Shown one piece after another: positions 2,672 to 49,467 of a stretch of 64,000 nt of DNA. Origin of the DNA: an uncultured Micavibrio sp. (GTDB lineage: Bacteria > Pseudomonadota > Alphaproteobacteria > Micavibrionales > Micavibrionaceae); the NCBI GenBank assembly GCA_964351365.1, contig CAYGNP010000001.1, forward strand, positions 92,572-156,571, read 5' to 3'. The notes beneath the pieces were generated by a model, which saw only the letters and a list, made by a program, of their open reading frames with translations, did no database searches and was not told where the DNA came from. The position numbers and the translations under genes are program-made. Each line of letters begins with the position of its first letter. The stretch's first letter is position 1.

Positions 2672-2720
2672 TCCAACATAAAAAAAATATAAAAATGCAT
2701 AAATTATGCACACAGAAAAA

Positions 2721-3105
2721 GGTCGAAGAAATCTATAAGCCGGGTTCTGTCCTCATATTTCTATGAGTGATGACCATTCATCTTGGCGATTGATTGCTCA
2801 AACGCTCATGCGACCTACCCGGGAGACGGTGCGGAAACACCTTGCATTTACATGCGTGCCTCCCCTATTTGGTCTTGCTTCCGGCGGGGTTTACCATGCC
2901 ACATTTGTTGCCAAATATGCGGTGCGCTCTTACCGCACCTTCTCACCTTTTCCTCTTTTCAAGAGGTAGTTTAAATTTCTTCAGCACTTTCCATCAAAGC
3001 TTGCGCCCTGTCCGGACGTTATCCGGCGCCGTTTTTCCGTGAAGCCCGGACTTTCCTCCCACCTTTGCCAAGGCTTTGGCGGGCGGCCATCCGATTTCTT
3101 CGACC
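2721..3105 (-). ncRNA. rnpB: RNase P RNA, bacterial type A
   Basis: The reverse complement contains GGAGGAAAGTCCGGGCT, GGTGCGGTAAGAGCGCACC and ACAGAACCCGGCTTAT, universally conserved RNase P RNA blocks. Terminal P1 pairing is GGTCGAAGAAATC (5') with GATTTCTTCGACC (3'). Ends are approximate within a few nt. Confidence 0.92.
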
Positions 3106-3137
3106 AAGGGCACTATACTCTTATTTATGATGAAAAA

Positions 3138-3848
3138 TCAAACTTTATGCGGACGCAATAGAGAGCAGAGCCGCGCTATGGTTTCTTGGTTGATTTTACC
3201 CTCGGTGCCATGCGTGAAAACATCCGGATAATAATGGCGCTGGAAGGCGGTGACAACATCCTGAAATGCCGCCATCGGATTGTAGCCCAGCTCGTTAAAA
3301 AGTTTTTCGGCCTCGTAATCATTGCGGGATATCGCTTCGGCGCGGGTGTAATCTTCTGGTTTGGGGTGAGGCCAACGTCCAACGCCGTTTGCAGCCAGCC
3401 ATTCCCAGTCAAAAAGCTCGCCAGGGTCTTGCTTGCGCTCGGGTGCCACATCGGAATGGCCCAGAACGTATTTGATCTCGTGCTTATCGATGATTTTGCG
3501 AGAGAGTTTGAGGACGGCTTGCATTTGCGCTTCGGGAAACGCGCGGTACCCGAATTCATGGCCGGGATTAACGATTTCTATGCCGATGGACGCCGAGTTG
3601 ATGTCGTCTTCACCCTTCCAGTAGGATACGCCTGCATGCCAGGCACGCTTGGCATCGGGGACAATATCCATGGTTGTTCCATCTTCATCGATAATATAAT
3701 GAACACTTACGCCGCTTTTGGGGTCGCTCAGGCGGTCTTTTGCCTCTTTCATTGTTTTCATACCCGTATAATGCATAAGCAAGATATAGGGCTCTAAATC
3801 ATCTCTGCGGTCTTCATAATTTTTGGGTTTAAAGAGCCATTGAAACAT
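3138..3848 (-). CDS. N-acetylmuramoyl-L-alanine amidase, AmpD/amidase_2 family
   Basis: ORF 3138..4001. The start chosen is ATG 3848 (MFQWLFKPKNY...). Motifs: LLMHYTGM, VSVHYIIDEDG, AWHAGVSYW, IGIEIVNPGHE, HSDVAPERKQDPG. The C-terminus resembles a degenerate PG-binding repeat. No signal peptide. Confidence 0.85.
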   Translation of the reverse strand: MFQWLFKPKNYEDRRDDLEPYILLMHYTGMKTMKEAKDRLSDPKSGVSVHYIIDEDGTTMDIVPDAKRAWHAGVSYWKGEDDINSASIGIEIVNPGHEFGYRAFPEAQMQAVLKLSRKIIDKHEIKYVLGHSDVAPERKQDPGELFDWEWLAANGVGRWPHPKPEDYTRAEAISRNDYEAEKLFNELGYNPMAAFQDVVTAFQRHYYPDVFTHGTEGKINQETIARLCSLLRPHKV

Positions 3849-7015: not shown

Positions 7016-7356
7016 GATTCTTCGCTGCGCTCAGAATGACAAAGGGGGGGGATTCTTCGCTGCGCTCAGAATGACAAAAGGGAGGGCGGAATGACATTTG
7101 AGATGCTCATTGTCATCCTGAAGCCCTTTAGGGCTGAAGGATCTTGTGCATTCATCATCCTTAAAAATGGAATTACCGCAAAGGCTCTAAGGTTCGCACC
7201 GTTTTTTGAACTACAGAGGACACAAGAGGGCGCCAAGGTTTTTGTTTTTAAGGGATGAGGGGGGAGGGGATTCTTCGCTGCGCTCAGAATGACAAAAGGG
7301 AGGGCGGAATGACAAAGGGGGGCTCAGAAAGACAAGCGGGCTCAGAAAGACAGGAG
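7016..7356. repeat. Cluster of short dispersed repeats (three copies of the GATTCTTCGCTGCGCTCAGAATGACAAA core, one reverse-type half element, a short tandem repeat)
   Basis: Core copies start at 7016, 7051 and 7269. 7051..7096 and 7269..7314 are an identical 46-nt direct repeat. GTCATCCTGAAGCCCTTTAGGGCTGAAGGATC lies at 7112..7143. GGGCTCAGAAAGACA occurs twice in tandem at about 7319..7350. A G8 run lies at 7044..7051. Confidence 0.9.
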
Positions 7357-20834: not shown

Positions 20835-21968
20835 TTATGATAGGCGGCCTTCGAAATCTTTATAGCCGAAGGATTTGACCAGCTCGTAGCGCCCGTCTTC
20901 GTGAAGGATACCGATATCGGGCAGTGGCACGCCGTTAAAGGTCGTGTTCTTTACACATGCATATTGCATCATGTCGGTGAAGATCAGTTTTTGACCGACC
21001 TGAAGGGGCTCATCGAAGCTGTAGGTTCCGATGACATCGCCGGTCATGCAGGTGTTTCCGCCCAGAATATAGCGGTGAGGCGCGTCCTGGCGCGCGCCTA
21101 TAATCTGCGGCGTGTAGGGAACCTCCAGAACATCGGGCATATGGGTGGAGGCGGAGGCATCGAGGATTGCAAGCTTTTCTGTGTGGTTGATGATATCCAG
21201 TACTGTGGCCACCAGATATCCGCCGTTATAGACATGCGCTGCGCCCGGCTCCATGGTGATATCAAGGCCGAATTTCTCCCGCAGCTCGATGAGGGCTTTG
21301 ATCAGTAATTCGCGGTCATAATCCGGGTGGCTGTAATAGTGCCCGCCGCCAAGATTAACGCGCTTGACGGTGTCCAAGGCAAAGCCGAATTCATGGGAGA
21401 TATAGTGAATGAGGCGCACCGAATCATGCGCGAGGTTTTCGCAAAGATTATGAAAGTGGAGCAGATCAACTTGCTCCAGAACCTCCGGCGTAAGCTCTTC
21501 CTTATATACGCCAAAGCGGGAAGACGGGGCGCTCGGGTCGTAGAGGGCGGAGTTTTTGACCAGCGAGAGCTGCGGGTTTACACGCAGGCCAATCACGGCG
21601 TCTTTATGGCTGGCGCGCACAAGGGGGGCGAAGCGCCGGAGCTGCTCCACCGAGTTGAAATAGATGTGATGCGAATATTTGAGGATTTCTTTCAAATCGC
21701 TTTCAGTATAGGCGGGAGAATAGGTGTGAACCTCTTTGCCGAAATGGGTCTTGCCCAGCCGTGCCTCATACAGGCCGCTCGCGGTGGTGCCGTCCAAATA
21801 ATCCGCCATCATGGGGAAGACGGAGAATTGTGAGAAGGCCTTGGTGGCGAGCAGAATGTTCACCCCTGCCCGCTTTTTGATCTCTGCCGCTTTCTCGAGG
21901 TTGCGCTTGATTGCAATGATGTCGGCGACGTAAGCGGGGGTGGTGATGGATTTTAAGACTTCTTTCAT
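20835..21968 (-). CDS. nspC: Carboxynorspermidine/carboxyspermidine decarboxylase
   Basis: 377 aa. TPAYVADI at the N-terminus, LLATKAF (PLP Lys), NLGGGHY and the overall length match CANSDC. Confidence 0.88.
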   Translation of the reverse strand: MKEVLKSITTPAYVADIIAIKRNLEKAAEIKKRAGVNILLATKAFSQFSVFPMMADYLDGTTASGLYEARLGKTHFGKEVHTYSPAYTESDLKEILKYSHHIYFNSVEQLRRFAPLVRASHKDAVIGLRVNPQLSLVKNSALYDPSAPSSRFGVYKEELTPEVLEQVDLLHFHNLCENLAHDSVRLIHYISHEFGFALDTVKRVNLGGGHYYSHPDYDRELLIKALIELREKFGLDITMEPGAAHVYNGGYLVATVLDIINHTEKLAILDASASTHMPDVLEVPYTPQIIGARQDAPHRYILGGNTCMTGDVIGTYSFDEPLQVGQKLIFTDMMQYACVKNTTFNGVPLPDIGILHEDGRYELVKSFGYKDFEGRLS

Positions 21969-22348
21969 TCCTTTATGCTTTCCTGATCCTTCGCTTTGCT
22001 CAGGATGACATTCCCTGTAGCGTCATTCTGAGGCGTAGCCGAAGAATCTATGGGAAATTGATAATTACATTGCGATAAATCTATCCAATCAGGATTTACA
22101 CATTGTATGAGCATATCCTTCTTTTTCCTTATCCAGCCTTTAATTGCCTTTTCTCTTTTTATTGCATTTTCGGAATCTGAATATATTTCAAAATATACAA
22201 GTTTGTGACAATTGTATTTTTTCGTAAAACCTTGATGCGTTCCGCTCTTATGTTCAAGAACACGTTTTTCAAGATTACTGCTGACGCCCGTATAAAGAGC
22301 AGTATTTTTAAAATTTGTCATTAAATACACGTAGTAGCTTTTATTCAT
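21965..22348 (-). CDS. GIY-YIG nuclease family protein (UPF0213/YhbQ-like) with a C-terminal tail encoded by the palindromic repeat
   Basis: 127 aa. YYVYLMTNFKNTALYTGVSSNLEKRVLEHK is the GIY-YIG core. The last roughly 30 aa (PIDSSATPQNDATGNVILSKAKDQESIKE) are translated from repeat copies at 21985..22048. The stop overlaps the nspC start (ATGA). Confidence 0.85.
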   Translation of the reverse strand: MNKSYYVYLMTNFKNTALYTGVSSNLEKRVLEHKSGTHQGFTKKYNCHKLVYFEIYSDSENAIKREKAIKGWIRKKKDMLIQCVNPDWIDLSQCNYQFPIDSSATPQNDATGNVILSKAKDQESIKE

Positions 22349-22377
22349 TTAGATTCTTCGCTTTGCTCAGAATGACA
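21985..22377 (-). mobile_element. Candidate repeat-flanked GIY-YIG cassette inserted between two polyamine genes
   Basis: GTCATTCTGAGGCGTAGCCGAAGAATC (22022..22048) and GATTCTTCGCTTTGCTCAGAATGACA (22352..22377) are inverted copies flanking exactly the 100-codon GIY-YIG core. An extra half element, GATCCTTCGCTTTGCTCAGGATGACA, lies at 21985..22010. Without 21985..22377, the spacer between the CANSDH stop and the nspC start would be about 26 nt. Confidence 0.55.
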
Positions 22378-22387
22378 ATTAAAGACA

Positions 22388-23632
22388 TCAAGCCGCTTTC
22401 TTCTCATATTTCGCGCGGCGTTCGGTGAGCTCGCCCAGGCCAGCGGGGAGTTCTTTCACGTGCCAAGGCAGGCCCTGTTTTGCGACTTCTTCCATAAAGG
22501 GGTTCGGGTCGAGCTGCTCGACGTTCCATACGCCTGGCTCCTTGCCCCATAGCCCTTTGGCCATCATGATTGCACCCGTTACGGGGGGCACGCCGGTGGT
22601 GTAGGAGACGGCCTGCGCGCCGACTTCTGCGTGGGTTTTGGCGTGGTCGCAGACATTGTAGATGAGAACGGTTTTTTCTTTGCCGTCCTTGAGCCCTGTA
22701 ATCACGCAGCCAATGGATGTTTTGCCGGTGTAGCCATCGGCGAGAGAGGATGGCTCTGGCAGCAAGGTTTTGAGGAACTGGATCGGCACGATCTCGACGC
22801 CGTTATGCACCACGGGATCAATGCGGGTCATGCCGATATTCTGCAGCACTTCCATATGTTTGATATATTCATCGCCAAAGGTCATCCAGAAGCGGATGCG
22901 TTTCAGGCCCTTGATGTTTTGCACGAGGCTTTCCAGCTCTTCGTGGTAGAGGAGATAGCTCGCCTTCTCGCCTACTTCGGGGTAGTCGATCATCTTGCGG
23001 AATTCGAGCGGCTCGGTTTCGATCCACTTGCCATTTTCCCAATATTTGCCTTTCTGCGTCACTTCGCGCAGGTTGATCTCTGGGTTGAAATTCGTGGCAA
23101 AGGCCTGTCCGTGATCGCCCGCGTTGCAGTCGATAATGTCGATATAATGGATTTCATCGAACAGGTTTTTCTGGGCGTAGGCGCAGTAGATGTTCGTCTG
23201 GCCCGGATCAAAGCCGCAGCCCAGAATCGCGGTAATGCCCGCTTTCTTGAAGCGATCCTGATAGGCCCATTGCCAGTGATATTCGAATTTTGCAACGTCG
23301 ATTGGCTCGTAATTTGCGGTGTCCATATAATTGGTATTGGTTTCCAGGCAGGCGTCCATGATGGCCAGATCCTGATAAGGCAGCGCCATATTGATAACCA
23401 GATCGGGCTTAAGCTTGTTGATGAGCGCCACCGTATCGGCGACGTTATCCGCATCAAGGGCGGAGATAGTTATATCAACGCCAAATCTTTTTTTGATGTC
23501 TTTTTGGATGGCTTCGCATTTTGAGACCGTGCGGCTGGCGAGGTGAATTTTTGTGAAAATATCCTTATTCATGGCGCATTTTTTTGCGACCACGCTGCCT
23601 GCTCCGCCGGCGCCGATAATCAATATGTTCAT
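22388..23632 (-). CDS. Carboxynorspermidine/carboxyspermidine dehydrogenase (saccharopine dehydrogenase family)
   Basis: 414 aa. The MNILIIGAGGAGSVVAKK Rossmann N-terminus and IHLASRT are present, and the overall length is typical of CANSDH. It sits adjacent to nspC. Confidence 0.88.
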   Translation of the reverse strand: MNILIIGAGGAGSVVAKKCAMNKDIFTKIHLASRTVSKCEAIQKDIKKRFGVDITISALDADNVADTVALINKLKPDLVINMALPYQDLAIMDACLETNTNYMDTANYEPIDVAKFEYHWQWAYQDRFKKAGITAILGCGFDPGQTNIYCAYAQKNLFDEIHYIDIIDCNAGDHGQAFATNFNPEINLREVTQKGKYWENGKWIETEPLEFRKMIDYPEVGEKASYLLYHEELESLVQNIKGLKRIRFWMTFGDEYIKHMEVLQNIGMTRIDPVVHNGVEIVPIQFLKTLLPEPSSLADGYTGKTSIGCVITGLKDGKEKTVLIYNVCDHAKTHAEVGAQAVSYTTGVPPVTGAIMMAKGLWGKEPGVWNVEQLDPNPFMEEVAKQGLPWHVKELPAGLGELTERRAKYEKKAA

Positions 23633-36061: not shown

Positions 36062-36140
36062 GTCATCATGAAGGGCTTTGGCCCTGAAGAATCTATTCCT
36101 TTGTTTTTAGATCCTTCAGCGCGAGCGCTTCAGGATGACA
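36062..36140. repeat. 79-nt palindromic element, full-length copy 1 (MITE/REP-like)
   Basis: Sequence is GTCATCATGAAGGGCTTTGGCCCTGAAGAATC, a 16-nt spacer, then GATCCTTCAGCGCGAGCGCTTCAGGATGAC. The termini are inverted repeats. It lies in the rrf2-cysG divergent promoter region. Confidence 0.9.
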
Positions 36141-41521: not shown

Positions 41522-41600
41522 GTCATTCTGAGGGGCTTTAGCCCTGAAGAATCTTGTTGTAGTTTTTTAGATCCTTCAGCGTTAACGCTTCAGGATGACA
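41522..41600. repeat. 79-nt palindromic element, full-length copy 2
   Basis: Sequence is GTCATTCTGAGGGGCTTTAGCCCTGAAGAATC, a 16-nt spacer, then GATCCTTCAGCGTTAACGCTTCAGGATGAC. It has the same length, architecture and orientation as 36062..36140, and starts 6 nt after the cysI stop. Confidence 0.9.
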
Positions 41601-47440: not shown

Positions 47441-47634
47441 TAATAATTTCCTTGATTTTTTAGGCATTTTATCCTAATGTTAAATTGTGCTGATAACGCG
47501 TTGTAAATAATAAATAATTTTAGAAAATGCACAAAAATGACAAACAAACTAAAGGACTTTGTTTTTTGTATTGATTTCAATATCTTATAGGGTATATTCA
47601 GCGCGCAGATTTAACCCTTACTTTTTTGGTATGT

Positions 47635-49467
47635 ATGTCCGATCTTATTCTTAGTGTTGAAGAGGCCAGCGTTTTGATCGCGGCCAAGCCGTTCTTTGAG
47701 GGGCTGACGTTCCATATTCATGCGGGGCGGAAAATCGCGCTCGTCGGAAAGAATGGCGCGGGGAAAACCACGCTGATGAACATTATCAAGGGTGATCGGG
47801 AAATTGATGATGGTAAACGCTTTCTCTATCCCGGCACGACGACAGGCTATATGCAGCAGAATATCGTGCCCACACCAGAGCAGACGGTGCGGGATTTTGT
47901 TTTTGAGGGGCTATCGGATGAGCTTGAAGATTGGGATGTAGATTACCGGATTGATATGGTGATTGCACCCCTGCTCCTGAATGTTGATGACAAGCTTGCA
48001 ACGCTCTCGGGGGGGCAGCTCCGCCGGGCAGCACTCGCACGGGCATTGGTGGAGGAGCCGGATATTCTGCTGCTTGATGAGCCGACCAACCATATGGATC
48101 TCGAGCTGATTGAATGGCTGGAGGGGTATATCGCAGCATATCGCGGCGCGGTTTTGATTGTCAGCCATGACCGGCGATTTTTAGCGAATACAACAGACCG
48201 CGTGTTCTGGCTCGACCGGGGAGAATTGAAAGTTGCGCCGCAGGGCTTTGCGCATTTTCAGGAATGGTCGACCGAGATGCTGGCGCAGGAGGGGCGCGCG
48301 CTGCATAACCGGGCCAAGAAAGTGGAGCAGGAAATTGCGTGGGCCAATAAGGGCGTGAAGGCGCGCGTTAAGCGTAATGTCCGCCGTCAAGCGCAGGCTT
48401 TTGAAGCGCGGGCGGATCTGGAAAAAGATCAGAAAGCGTTCCGGCGTGTGACCTCGACGATTGAGCTGCCGCCTATAACGGCTGAGGAGTCTTCACAAAA
48501 TGTGGCGGAGTTCTTTAATGTCGGGAAAAATTACGGCGATAAAAAAATTCTTGATCATTTCAATATGCGGATCAAACGCAAAGACCGGATCGGGATTTTG
48601 GGCAAGAATGGCGCGGGGAAGACGACTTTCCTGCGCATGTTGACGGGGACAGAAGAGCCGGATACAGGCAAGATCAAGATGGCGAAAGATTTGACGTTCA
48701 GCTATTTTGATCAAAACCGCACGATGCTGGAAGATAACAAAACACTGAAGGATAATCTGTGTCCGGAAGGATCGGATTATCTGGATGTGCGCGGTAAATC
48801 GCGCCATGTGTGCGGGTATTTGAAGGATTTTCTTTTTGATCCGGAAGATGCATGGCGGCAGGTTTCAACTCTTTCAGGGGGGCAGAAGAACCGCCTGATG
48901 CTGGCCAAGGTGCTGGCTAATCCCGGCTCGATGCTGATTTTGGATGAGCCGACGAATGACCTTGATATGGATACGCTGGATATGCTGACCGGGGTTTTGA
49001 AAAGCTATGACGGGACGTTGTTTGTCGTGTCGCATGACCGGGATTTCCTGGATCAGGTGGTCACCAAAATGCTGGTGTTTGAGGGGAACGGCGTTGTTGA
49101 AGGCATTGTCGGTGGATATAGCGATTACGTGCTATGGAAGAAGAGCCAGGATGCTATTCAATCTGAACACTCGCAGAAGCGCGCGGATGGTTCTCAAAAG
49201 CCTAATAAGGATTCTTCGGCTTCGCCTCAGAATGACATTTCTTTTTCCTACAAACACAAGCGGGAGTTGGAGCAATTGCCCCTAGATATTGCAGGGCTTG
49301 AACAGGAAATTGCCAAGCTGGAGGATTTACTGAGTGATGCCGATCTTTATACGCGTGATCCCGATGCGTTTATGAGTGCATCAAAGCGTTTGCCGCAGGC
49401 GCAAGAGGCGCTTGAGGCGGCGGAGATGCGCTGGCTGGAGCTTGAGGAGATGCGGGCGCGGGCCTAA
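47635..49467 (+). CDS. uup: ABC-F family ATPase (Uup-like) with C-terminal coiled coil
   Basis: ORF 47626..49467 with an in-frame ATG at 47635. It has two ABC cassettes (GKNGAGKTT twice, LSGGQLRR / LSGGQKNR, LLLDEPTNHMD / LILDEPTNDLD) and no TM domain. The C-terminal helix is ELEQLPLDIAGLEQEIAKLE. Confidence 0.9.
   Translation: MSDLILSVEEASVLIAAKPFFEGLTFHIHAGRKIALVGKNGAGKTTLMNIIKGDREIDDGKRFLYPGTTTGYMQQNIVPTPEQTVRDFVFEGLSDELEDWDVDYRIDMVIAPLLLNVDDKLATLSGGQLRRAALARALVEEPDILLLDEPTNHMDLELIEWLEGYIAAYRGAVLIVSHDRRFLANTTDRVFWLDRGELKVAPQGFAHFQEWSTEMLAQEGRALHNRAKKVEQEIAWANKGVKARVKRNVRRQAQAFEARADLEKDQKAFRRVTSTIELPPITAEESSQNVAEFFNVGKNYGDKKILDHFNMRIKRKDRIGILGKNGAGKTTFLRMLTGTEEPDTGKIKMAKDLTFSYFDQNRTMLEDNKTLKDNLCPEGSDYLDVRGKSRHVCGYLKDFLFDPEDAWRQVSTLSGGQKNRLMLAKVLANPGSMLILDEPTNDLDMDTLDMLTGVLKSYDGTLFVVSHDRDFLDQVVTKMLVFEGNGVVEGIVGGYSDYVLWKKSQDAIQSEHSQKRADGSQKPNKDSSASPQNDISFSYKHKRELEQLPLDIAGLEQEIAKLEDLLSDADLYTRDPDAFMSASKRLPQAQEALEAAEMRWLELEEMRARA
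49210..49237 (+). repeat. Repeat half element embedded in-frame in the uup coding sequence
   Basis: GATTCTTCGGCTTCGCCTCAGAATGACA differs at one position from the reverse complement of 22022..22048. It is translated as DSSASPQND in the linker before the C-terminal coiled coil. Confidence 0.85.

Follow-up and report, generated by a model that had tools for sequence, protein, structure and literature searches.

A putative Ssn-family GIY-YIG nuclease gene and a tandem-G·A subtype of its hairpin repeat in a polyamine operon of Micavibrio-like bacteria

The closest described counterpart of the locus studied here is the Ssn/SRM system reported by Chenal et al. (Nat Commun 2025, PMC11893778). In Neisseria meningitidis, SsnA (NMV_0044) is a 94-aa protein with a single GIY-YIG domain (CDD cd10448, GIY-YIG_unchar_3), which recognises the NTS hairpin repeat CGTCATTCCCGCGMAVGCGGGAATCYRG in a single orientation and solely as single-stranded DNA (ssDNA), and makes its cut a few nt upstream of the repeat. 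ssDNA-specific binding and cutting were demonstrated for four homologues, and the characterised relatives do not cleave double-stranded DNA (dsDNA). Cleavage depends on the three nt that precede the palindrome on its 5′ side, binding most of all on the C that directly follows it, and each of the substitutions Y6A, Y17A and E64A abolishes cleavage by SsnA. At least one repeat of this kind (Ssn-related motif, SRM) was found near 71% of homologues, with SRMs on both sides in 42%. SsnA lowers transformation by NTS-bearing DNA, and NTS-ssnA-NTS was likened, as a discussion-level analogy, to an insertion sequence of the IS200/IS605 kind and to REP/BIME (all PMC11893778). Our literature search found no later work on the Ssn family. 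Here we describe a locus from an uncultured Micavibrio sp. (contig CAYGNP010000001.1, assembly GCA_964351365.1), analysed as a window of 64,000 nt whose positions are used throughout, in which a small GIY-YIG nuclease gene with hairpin repeats on both sides lies between two polyamine genes. With a probability of about 0.8, sequence comparison indicates that this ssn-like gene encodes a member of the Ssn family, a single-domain GIY-YIG ssDNA endonuclease, and that the repeat dispersed over the window is its cognate SRM.

We base the assignment on the size and catalytic residues of the protein, on the inverted flanking GTC-hairpin-C repeats, and on 55–59% identity to homologues that have canonical repeats of the published type. 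As in the published system (PMC11893778), the nuclease is a small protein (~95 aa) with GIY-YIG as its single domain and with Tyr, Tyr and Glu at the same catalytic positions, and it is combined with an oriented repeat made of (H)GTC, an AT...AT palindrome and C. Inverted copies flank the gene, the repeat is dispersed and mostly intergenic, and the system is spread across many phyla. The window differs from the published system in having tandem G·A (..CTGA-G...C-GA-AG..) in place of the GC-rich CCCGCG of the stem, in the continuation of the open reading frame (ORF) through two repeats into a 32-aa tail, and in the position of the module within a polyamine operon, where it is conserved in five genomes. 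The core idea, that a tiny GIY-YIG nuclease is paired with a hairpin repeat of its own, has been in print since 2025 and was rediscovered here from sequence alone: a first-pass annotation of the window had proposed that the small nuclease is the cognate enzyme of the palindromic repeat, and had known of no characterised example. Such an example exists in Ssn, for which the pairing has been shown experimentally (PMC11893778), so that the idea is not new, and our data support it for this locus. What is new is the tandem-G·A variant of the SRM, the operon position shared by five genomes, two empty sites, gene-less repeat doublets, a repeat lying in frame within an ABC-F gene, and the AT-richness that ssn has kept as an old gene under purifying selection.

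The features of the locus, in the order in which the minus strand is read, are as follows.

22388..23632, minus strand: CANSDH, a gene of the carboxynorspermidine/saccharopine dehydrogenase family (ORF and domain match), upstream operon neighbour
22352..22377, minus strand: upstream SRM, TGTCATTCTGAGCAAAGCGAAGAATC, forward relative to the gene, 10 nt past the CANSDH stop (TGA) and 3 nt before the ssn ATG
21965..22348, minus strand: ssn-like GIY-YIG nuclease ORF, 127 aa, with core residues 1–93 at 22070..22348
22022..22048, plus strand: downstream SRM, inverted relative to the upstream copy; second end of the SRM-ssn-SRM unit, contributing ...DSSATPQND... to the tail of the ORF
21985..22009, minus strand: third SRM, with the ATCCT/AGGAT stem variant, head-to-head with the previous SRM (12-nt spacer), 16 nt upstream of the nspC ATG
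20835..21968, minus strand: nspC, a carboxynorspermidine decarboxylase-like gene (Orn_DAP_Arg_deC; ORF and domain match), downstream operon neighbour

The Pfam match of the ORF to GIY-YIG (PF01541) has E=1.8e-15, covers residues 5–76, and is the sole domain found in it. The same search gave a saccharopine-dehydrogenase domain in CANSDH, Orn_DAP_Arg_deC in nspC, and an arginase-family (agmatinase-like) gene beyond CANSDH. The ORF reads through the inverted repeat (22048..22022), the spacer and the third copy, and its TGA overlaps the nspC ATG as ATGA. The layout given by the first-pass annotation was thus borne out in all its parts, namely a GIY-YIG core bounded by inverted repeat copies with a further element at 21985, a module placed between CANSDH (stop at 22388) and nspC (start at 21968), and a reading frame that runs into the repeat and overlaps nspC. 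Its calculation that removal of 21985..22377 would leave a spacer of 26 nt also holds; module-free relatives have spacers of 3 and 10 nt. Across the module the GC content drops from ~55% to ~34%. Because the three genes lie on the same strand with tight spacing (10+26+3 nt upstream of ssn) and the ATGA overlap, and no terminator-like site was predicted among CANSDH, ssn and nspC, the module is probably co-transcribed with the polyamine operon.

All copies of the repeat in the window read GTC-AT-xyz-GA-[short stem/loop]-GA-z′y′x′-AT-C, and those near ssn are 25–27 nt long. The unpaired GTC 5′ of the palindrome and the C directly 3′ of it are present in every copy. The local copies are GTCATTCTGAGGCGTAGCCGAAGAATC (22022–22048, plus strand), GTCATTCTGAGCAAAGCGAAGAATC (22352–22376, minus strand) and GTCATCCTGAGCAAAGCGAAGGATC (21985–22009, minus strand). 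Over the window the outer stem takes two forms, ATTCT/AGAAT and ATCCT/AGGAT, and its two sides change in step. A strict pattern matched the window 7 times, against 0.00 expected from 100 shuffles, and a looser search gave 11 clear copies and one weak copy, with a further degenerate copy at 36062–36093. Outside the ssn locus this amounts to 8 clear copies and 1–3 degenerate ones; the earlier count of no fewer than nine other places was roughly right and slightly generous. Outside the ssn tail, all copies but one fall between long ORFs. A hammerhead-like reading of CUGA...GAA in the repeat was rejected by inspection, as the stems pair directly and the core does not have the required unpaired nucleotides.

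The association of repeat and gene extends far beyond the window. We scanned one genome per species and obtained 80 loci with 83 homologous genes, from Alphaproteobacteria, Clostridia, Cyanobacteria, Omnitrophota, Patescibacteria, Chloroflexota and others; this sample is query-biased. GTCAT is concentrated 20–80 nt upstream of the 83 genes and ATGAC 20–80 nt downstream, and the best inverted repeat shared by the flanks starts in most cases with TGTCAT. For 133 of 182 gene-adjacent GTCAT anchors, the five bases that come next are matched further on by their exact reverse complement plus C, which closes the stem, compared with 1% for shuffled tails. The closed anchors contain 12 different compensating xyz triplets, and 91 of the 133 have the inner GA/GA. 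Neighbouring repeats are mainly inverted, with 71 forward-reverse and 66 reverse-forward pairs versus 11 forward-forward and 12 reverse-reverse. When the SRM is defined by its structure, a repeat lies near 77 of the 83 genes, and a forward copy upstream is combined with a reverse copy downstream in 49. These data support the pairing of nuclease and repeat proposed by the first-pass annotation, and show it to be general.

The published SRM string, HGTCWYN(0-2)YYVSBRHN(0-5)WNVSBRGN(0-2)RNCYNB, is a search aid derived from 29 genomes and not a definition. It gave 0 matches in the window, and canonical NTS test sequences do match it. In our scan any match was present in 7/80 loci, and matches flank 2/83 genes. 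By sequence comparison, the repeats of the window and those of most close homologues form a tandem-G·A subtype that this string does not cover. Published SRM counts probably understate the system, and each SRM subtype is a candidate for a new specificity in ssDNA-cutting tools.

On the protein side, 96 database homologues (E up to 1e-5) were collected, mostly single-domain proteins of 87–116 aa from Patescibacteria and many other groups. In an alignment of 31 sequences the conserved core is 93–95 aa, Y19, G21, R29, H33 and E66 are invariant, and Y8 is kept in at least 90%. Y8 (the Tyr of GIY), Y19 (the Tyr of YIG) and E66 (the metal-binding Glu) would stand at a constant offset of +2 from Y6, Y17 and E64 of SsnA. 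Residues ~96 to 127 form the read-through tail encoded by the two downstream repeats. A Rhodospirillales homologue (L044) has 59% identity and is flanked on both gene sides by repeats that match the published string; the second ssn of an Omnitrophota locus (L038) has 55% identity, likewise with published-string SRMs on both sides. Among the flanking copies of these two genes, the repeat TGTCATTCCCGCGCAAGCGGGAATCTAT is almost the same as the Neisseria NTS consensus. The Omnitrophota locus holds two adjacent ssn genes (2495–2773 and 3095–3373), one with tandem-G·A SRMs and the other with SRMs of the canonical NTS type, an arrangement that suggests separate specificities of nuclease and repeat in a single genome. 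NCBIfam holds no model specific to the family. A sequence search of the PDB gave no Ssn structure, and the nearest solved structures are UPF0213 proteins.

Several observations weigh against the Ssn assignment and its extension to this repeat. Single hairpins are weak by nearest-neighbour DNA energies, at −1.9 to −4.7 kcal/mol, and in 4/6 folded sequences the fold z-scores are +0.2 to −1.0, mostly no better than shuffles. The case for the hairpin therefore rests on covariation and comparative evidence. The published degenerate string fits none of the repeats in the window, and the biochemistry of Ssn concerns other SRM types. The 32-aa tail is unusual for the family, though it recurs in this clade, and the link to the published family is indirect, though strong, by way of the L044 and L038 homologues. 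In addition, the ssn lineage has stayed fixed at one locus in five genomes, which runs counter to frequent movement.

If the assignment is correct, homology to the characterised proteins suggests how the system would work. The Ssn protein would bind the repeat only when one strand folds as GTC-[AT-xyz-GA-stem/loop-GA-z′y′x′-AT]-C, would read the unpaired 5′ GTC and the C after the stem, and would nick the strand a few nt 5′ of the motif. The gene with its inverted SRMs forms a compact, AT-rich module of ~360–390 nt similar to an insertion sequence. In an ancestor of the Micavibrio-like alphaproteobacterial lineage, this module would have entered the 3–10 nt CANSDH–nspC spacer in operon orientation, a direction of events that we infer. 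Since then it has been inherited vertically, with purifying selection on ssn and turnover of SRM copies near ssn and elsewhere. The effect in the cell would probably be, as in Neisseria, the cleavage of SRM-bearing ssDNA that is incoming, replicating or recombining, with the spread of repeats as a possible by-product. Natural competence is not known for the host, and therefore the role in transformation control known from Neisseria may not apply. More speculatively, cleavage by Ssn may cause the repeats to turn over or the module to move, and the upstream hairpin, whose 3′ arm lies at the place expected of a ribosome-binding site, may control ssn translation.

The operon site offers a clean natural experiment on the mobility of SRM-ssn-SRM, as one and the same spacer holds the module in five genomes and is a clean empty site in two others. 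Besides the window, ssn lies between CANSDH and nspC in four related genomes, with identities to the window protein of 74% in L002 (an alphaproteobacterial metagenome-assembled genome), 60% in L003 (Micavibrio sp.), 68% in L162 and 74% in L164. Repeats flank the gene at all of these 4/4 other occupied loci, so that a nuclease gene at the same site without flanking repeats, which the first-pass annotation had named as evidence against its proposal, was not encountered. Repeat number and orientation differ in each genome, and the downstream layout of a reverse copy, 8–13 nt and a forward copy recurs in L002, L003 (with a degenerate 5′ end) and L162. In L002 (2501–4054) there is no ssn stop before nspC, and ssn, repeats and nspC form one 517-aa frame. 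In two of the loci CANSDH and ssn are separated by one additional AT-rich ORF, the two being unrelated, at 1784–2362 in L162 (192 aa, GC content at third codon positions (GC3) 26%) and at 1479–1943 in L164 (154 aa, membrane-like, GC3 40%), neither with a Pfam match; the CANSDH–nspC spacer seems to collect foreign genes.

The two module-free relatives come from metagenomes. In L082 the spacer is 3 nt (CANSDH TAA, taa, nspC ATG), and in L084 it is 10 nt, and these empty sites support the earlier statement that the module was inserted inside a polyamine operon. The CANSDH tree, built by neighbour joining, has the occupied L003 at its base and the empty L082 beside the window and L002. With this single-gene tree as weak evidence, one old insertion followed by at least two clean losses would be the simplest history, the alternative being three or more gains. 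Among the five ssn copies the synonymous divergence (dS) is saturated, the nonsynonymous divergence (dN) is 0.13–0.32, and dN/dS is ≤0.13 where computable. Judged by these sequence divergences, ssn is an old and functional gene under purifying selection.

Copies of the repeat also occur in the window away from any nuclease gene.

7016–7040 (minus), 7051–7075 (minus), 7112–7143 (plus) and 7269–7293 (minus): intergenic cluster of four SRMs without a nuclease gene, with G-rich spacers
36062..36139: gene-less inverted doublet of 78 nt, intergenic, with a degenerate forward copy (36062–36093), a 16-nt spacer and a reverse copy (36110–36139); ssDNA fold z = −6.1
41522..41599: gene-less inverted doublet of 78 nt, with a forward copy (41522–41553), a 16-nt spacer and a reverse copy (41570–41599); ssDNA fold z = −3.4
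49210..49236, minus strand: solo 27-nt SRM in frame within an ABC-F ATPase ORF (47626..49467, plus strand), encoding DSSASPQND

The neighbours of the doublet at 41522..41599 are genes for a sulfite/nitrite reductase and a phosphorylase. Both doublets have a T-rich spacer, look like REPINs or MITEs, and are of an SRM subtype with a longer inner stem than the copies that flank ssn. The repeat in the ABC-F gene lies in the linker before the C-terminal domain (two ABC_tran and ABC_tran_CTD), and the DSSASPQND that it adds corresponds to the peptide encoded by the repeat in the ssn tail. Rickettsia palindromic elements are likewise short palindromic repeats able to sit in frame inside coding genes; they are ~100–150 nt long, and we know of no cognate nuclease for them.

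The arrangement of the locus resembles that of RAYT (TnpA_REP) with its REP, REPIN and BIME elements, in which a small gene also lies between inverted, oriented hairpins with an unpaired 5′ motif (GTAG there, GTC here), and which share with our system gene-less inverted doublets, clusters of alternating orientation and recognition of ssDNA. With IS200/IS605 it shares sub-terminal hairpins read on one strand, the lack of a target-site duplication and the compact size. However, the arrangement is analogous to that of RAYT and the enzyme is unrelated: the window enzyme is a hydrolytic GIY-YIG nuclease, RAYT is an HUH Y1 tyrosine transesterase, and Ssn is not known to form a covalent intermediate or to transfer strands. 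IS200/IS605 elements differ in their non-identical left and right hairpins, their HUH transposase and their insertion beside a defined tetra- or pentanucleotide. According to a reading that extends the Ssn explanation without excluding it, SRM-ssn-SRM is a self-mobilising ssDNA insertion sequence with Ssn as transposase, a functional analogue of RAYT/REPIN or IS200/IS605, and the doublets and solo SRMs are its non-autonomous derivatives. The insertion-sequence analogy was already raised by Chenal et al. (PMC11893778), and it would fit the inverted terminal SRMs with GTCAT facing outward in 49/83 genes, the great excess of inverted over direct neighbouring copies, the two clean empty sites with the losses or gains implied by the tree, the variation of SRM number and orientation around the same gene, the two gene-less doublets, and the higher AT content of ssn relative to its flanks in 83/83 genes. 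We nevertheless hold it to be less likely than not. A GIY-YIG nuclease merely hydrolyses, with no strand transfer or ligation known for the 95-aa domain; in five genomes this lineage has kept to the same locus, with dS saturated; neither a target-site duplication nor a conserved target is visible at the module junctions in the window; the whole 64 kb window has a single ssn gene; and the doublets carry a different SRM subtype from the ssn-flanking copies. Still somewhat more doubtful is the stronger proposal of a new class of autonomous ssDNA insertion sequence, which would move by a 95-aa GIY-YIG nuclease and host repair and have the doublets and solo SRMs, including the in-frame one, as progeny. 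Its AT-rich body would be functionally required, e.g. for easy melting during hairpin extrusion, and would not be a trace of recent transfer.

Explanations in which nuclease and repeat are not partners in ssDNA fare worse. If the SRM hairpins were transcript elements, acting in translation control of ssn, as mRNA stabilisers or as operon attenuators, the nuclease would be incidental. Tandem G·A is a common structural element of RNA, where an upstream SRM is present, its end lies no more than ~20 nt from the inferred start in about half of the loci (3 nt in the window and 2 nt in L003), and the 3′ arm of the upstream SRM (GAAGGATC, GAGGAATC) appears from its sequence to resemble a Shine-Dalgarno site. 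However, the repeats show both orientations with respect to the genes beside them and also form clusters that do not look transcribed, Rfam at gathering thresholds gave nothing at the repeats of the window, regulation at the start codon leaves the dispersed copies unexplained, and SsnA shows no interaction with the RNA version of its motif (PMC11893778); this role as the whole explanation is improbable. We give very little credence to a free-standing homing endonuclease like I-TevI, which would cut dsDNA at the repeat and be copied in by repair, leaving the flanking repeats as remnants of its target. The GIY-YIG domain, the AT-rich look of a selfish gene and a weak hit to TIGR01453, a model of group I intron endonucleases, would suit such an enzyme, but the score of this hit is far under the cut-off (20.5 bits versus 56.05) and it covers the first 49 residues only, the ~95-aa core has no DNA-binding extension, the flanks are two complete inverted repeats and not halves of one target, and characterised relatives leave dsDNA uncut (PMC11893778). 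Just as hard to accept is an unrelated passenger, i.e. ordinary REP or MITE repeats moved by another enzyme next to a housekeeping repair nuclease of the UPF0213/YhbQ type. Repeats do occur at many places without a nuclease gene, and the UPF0213 proteins, which are the nearest solved structures (PDB 1zg2 and 1ywl), have a stand-alone ~100-aa domain of the same fold family. The window protein, however, is not closely similar to BH0048, EF2693 or YhbQ, and it matches the two structures weakly (E=2e-6 and 4e-5, 27–31 bits), compared with E=1e-20 to 1e-45 for SRM-flanked homologues, and position-specific flanking at 77/83 genes in many phyla goes beyond coincidence. To our knowledge, UPF0213/YhbQ proteins have no repeat association.

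The base composition of the gene sets it apart from its operon. In the five genomes ssn has a GC3 of 29–41%, versus 53–68% for CANSDH and nspC, a gap that this old gene has kept under purifying selection and with its synonymous sites saturated. Over the scanned loci, 83/83 genes have an ssn core whose GC content lies more than 5 points under that of the flanks, and its GC3 is more than 10 points under that of neighbouring ORFs in 52/82. Part of this AT-richness comes from a protein rich in Lys, Asn and Tyr and from the query-biased sample. The GC3 gap of an anciently resident ssn is not accounted for by recent transfer and seems to be general for the family.

One other locus of the scan (L027, ~2040–2975) has a periodic array of inverted SRM doublets with a period of ~118 nt on both sides of ssn, and in another (L069, 1800–4020) the whole ssn unit is tandemly duplicated within repeat arrays, with 87% identity over 921 nt. 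Comparison of within-genome ssn copies, in this duplication and in Marinicella (L041/L067, only 73% identity within the gene), gave no clean boundaries for the ends of the element. In the window, a graveyard of repeats at 7016–7351, downstream of a 326-aa ORF, contains the cluster of four SRMs and truncated copies, with GGAATGACA and CTCAGAAAGACA repeated, up to 7351. The sole Rfam match of the window is a bacterial RNase P RNA of class A (RF00010, 288.8 bits) at 2720–3102 on the minus strand.

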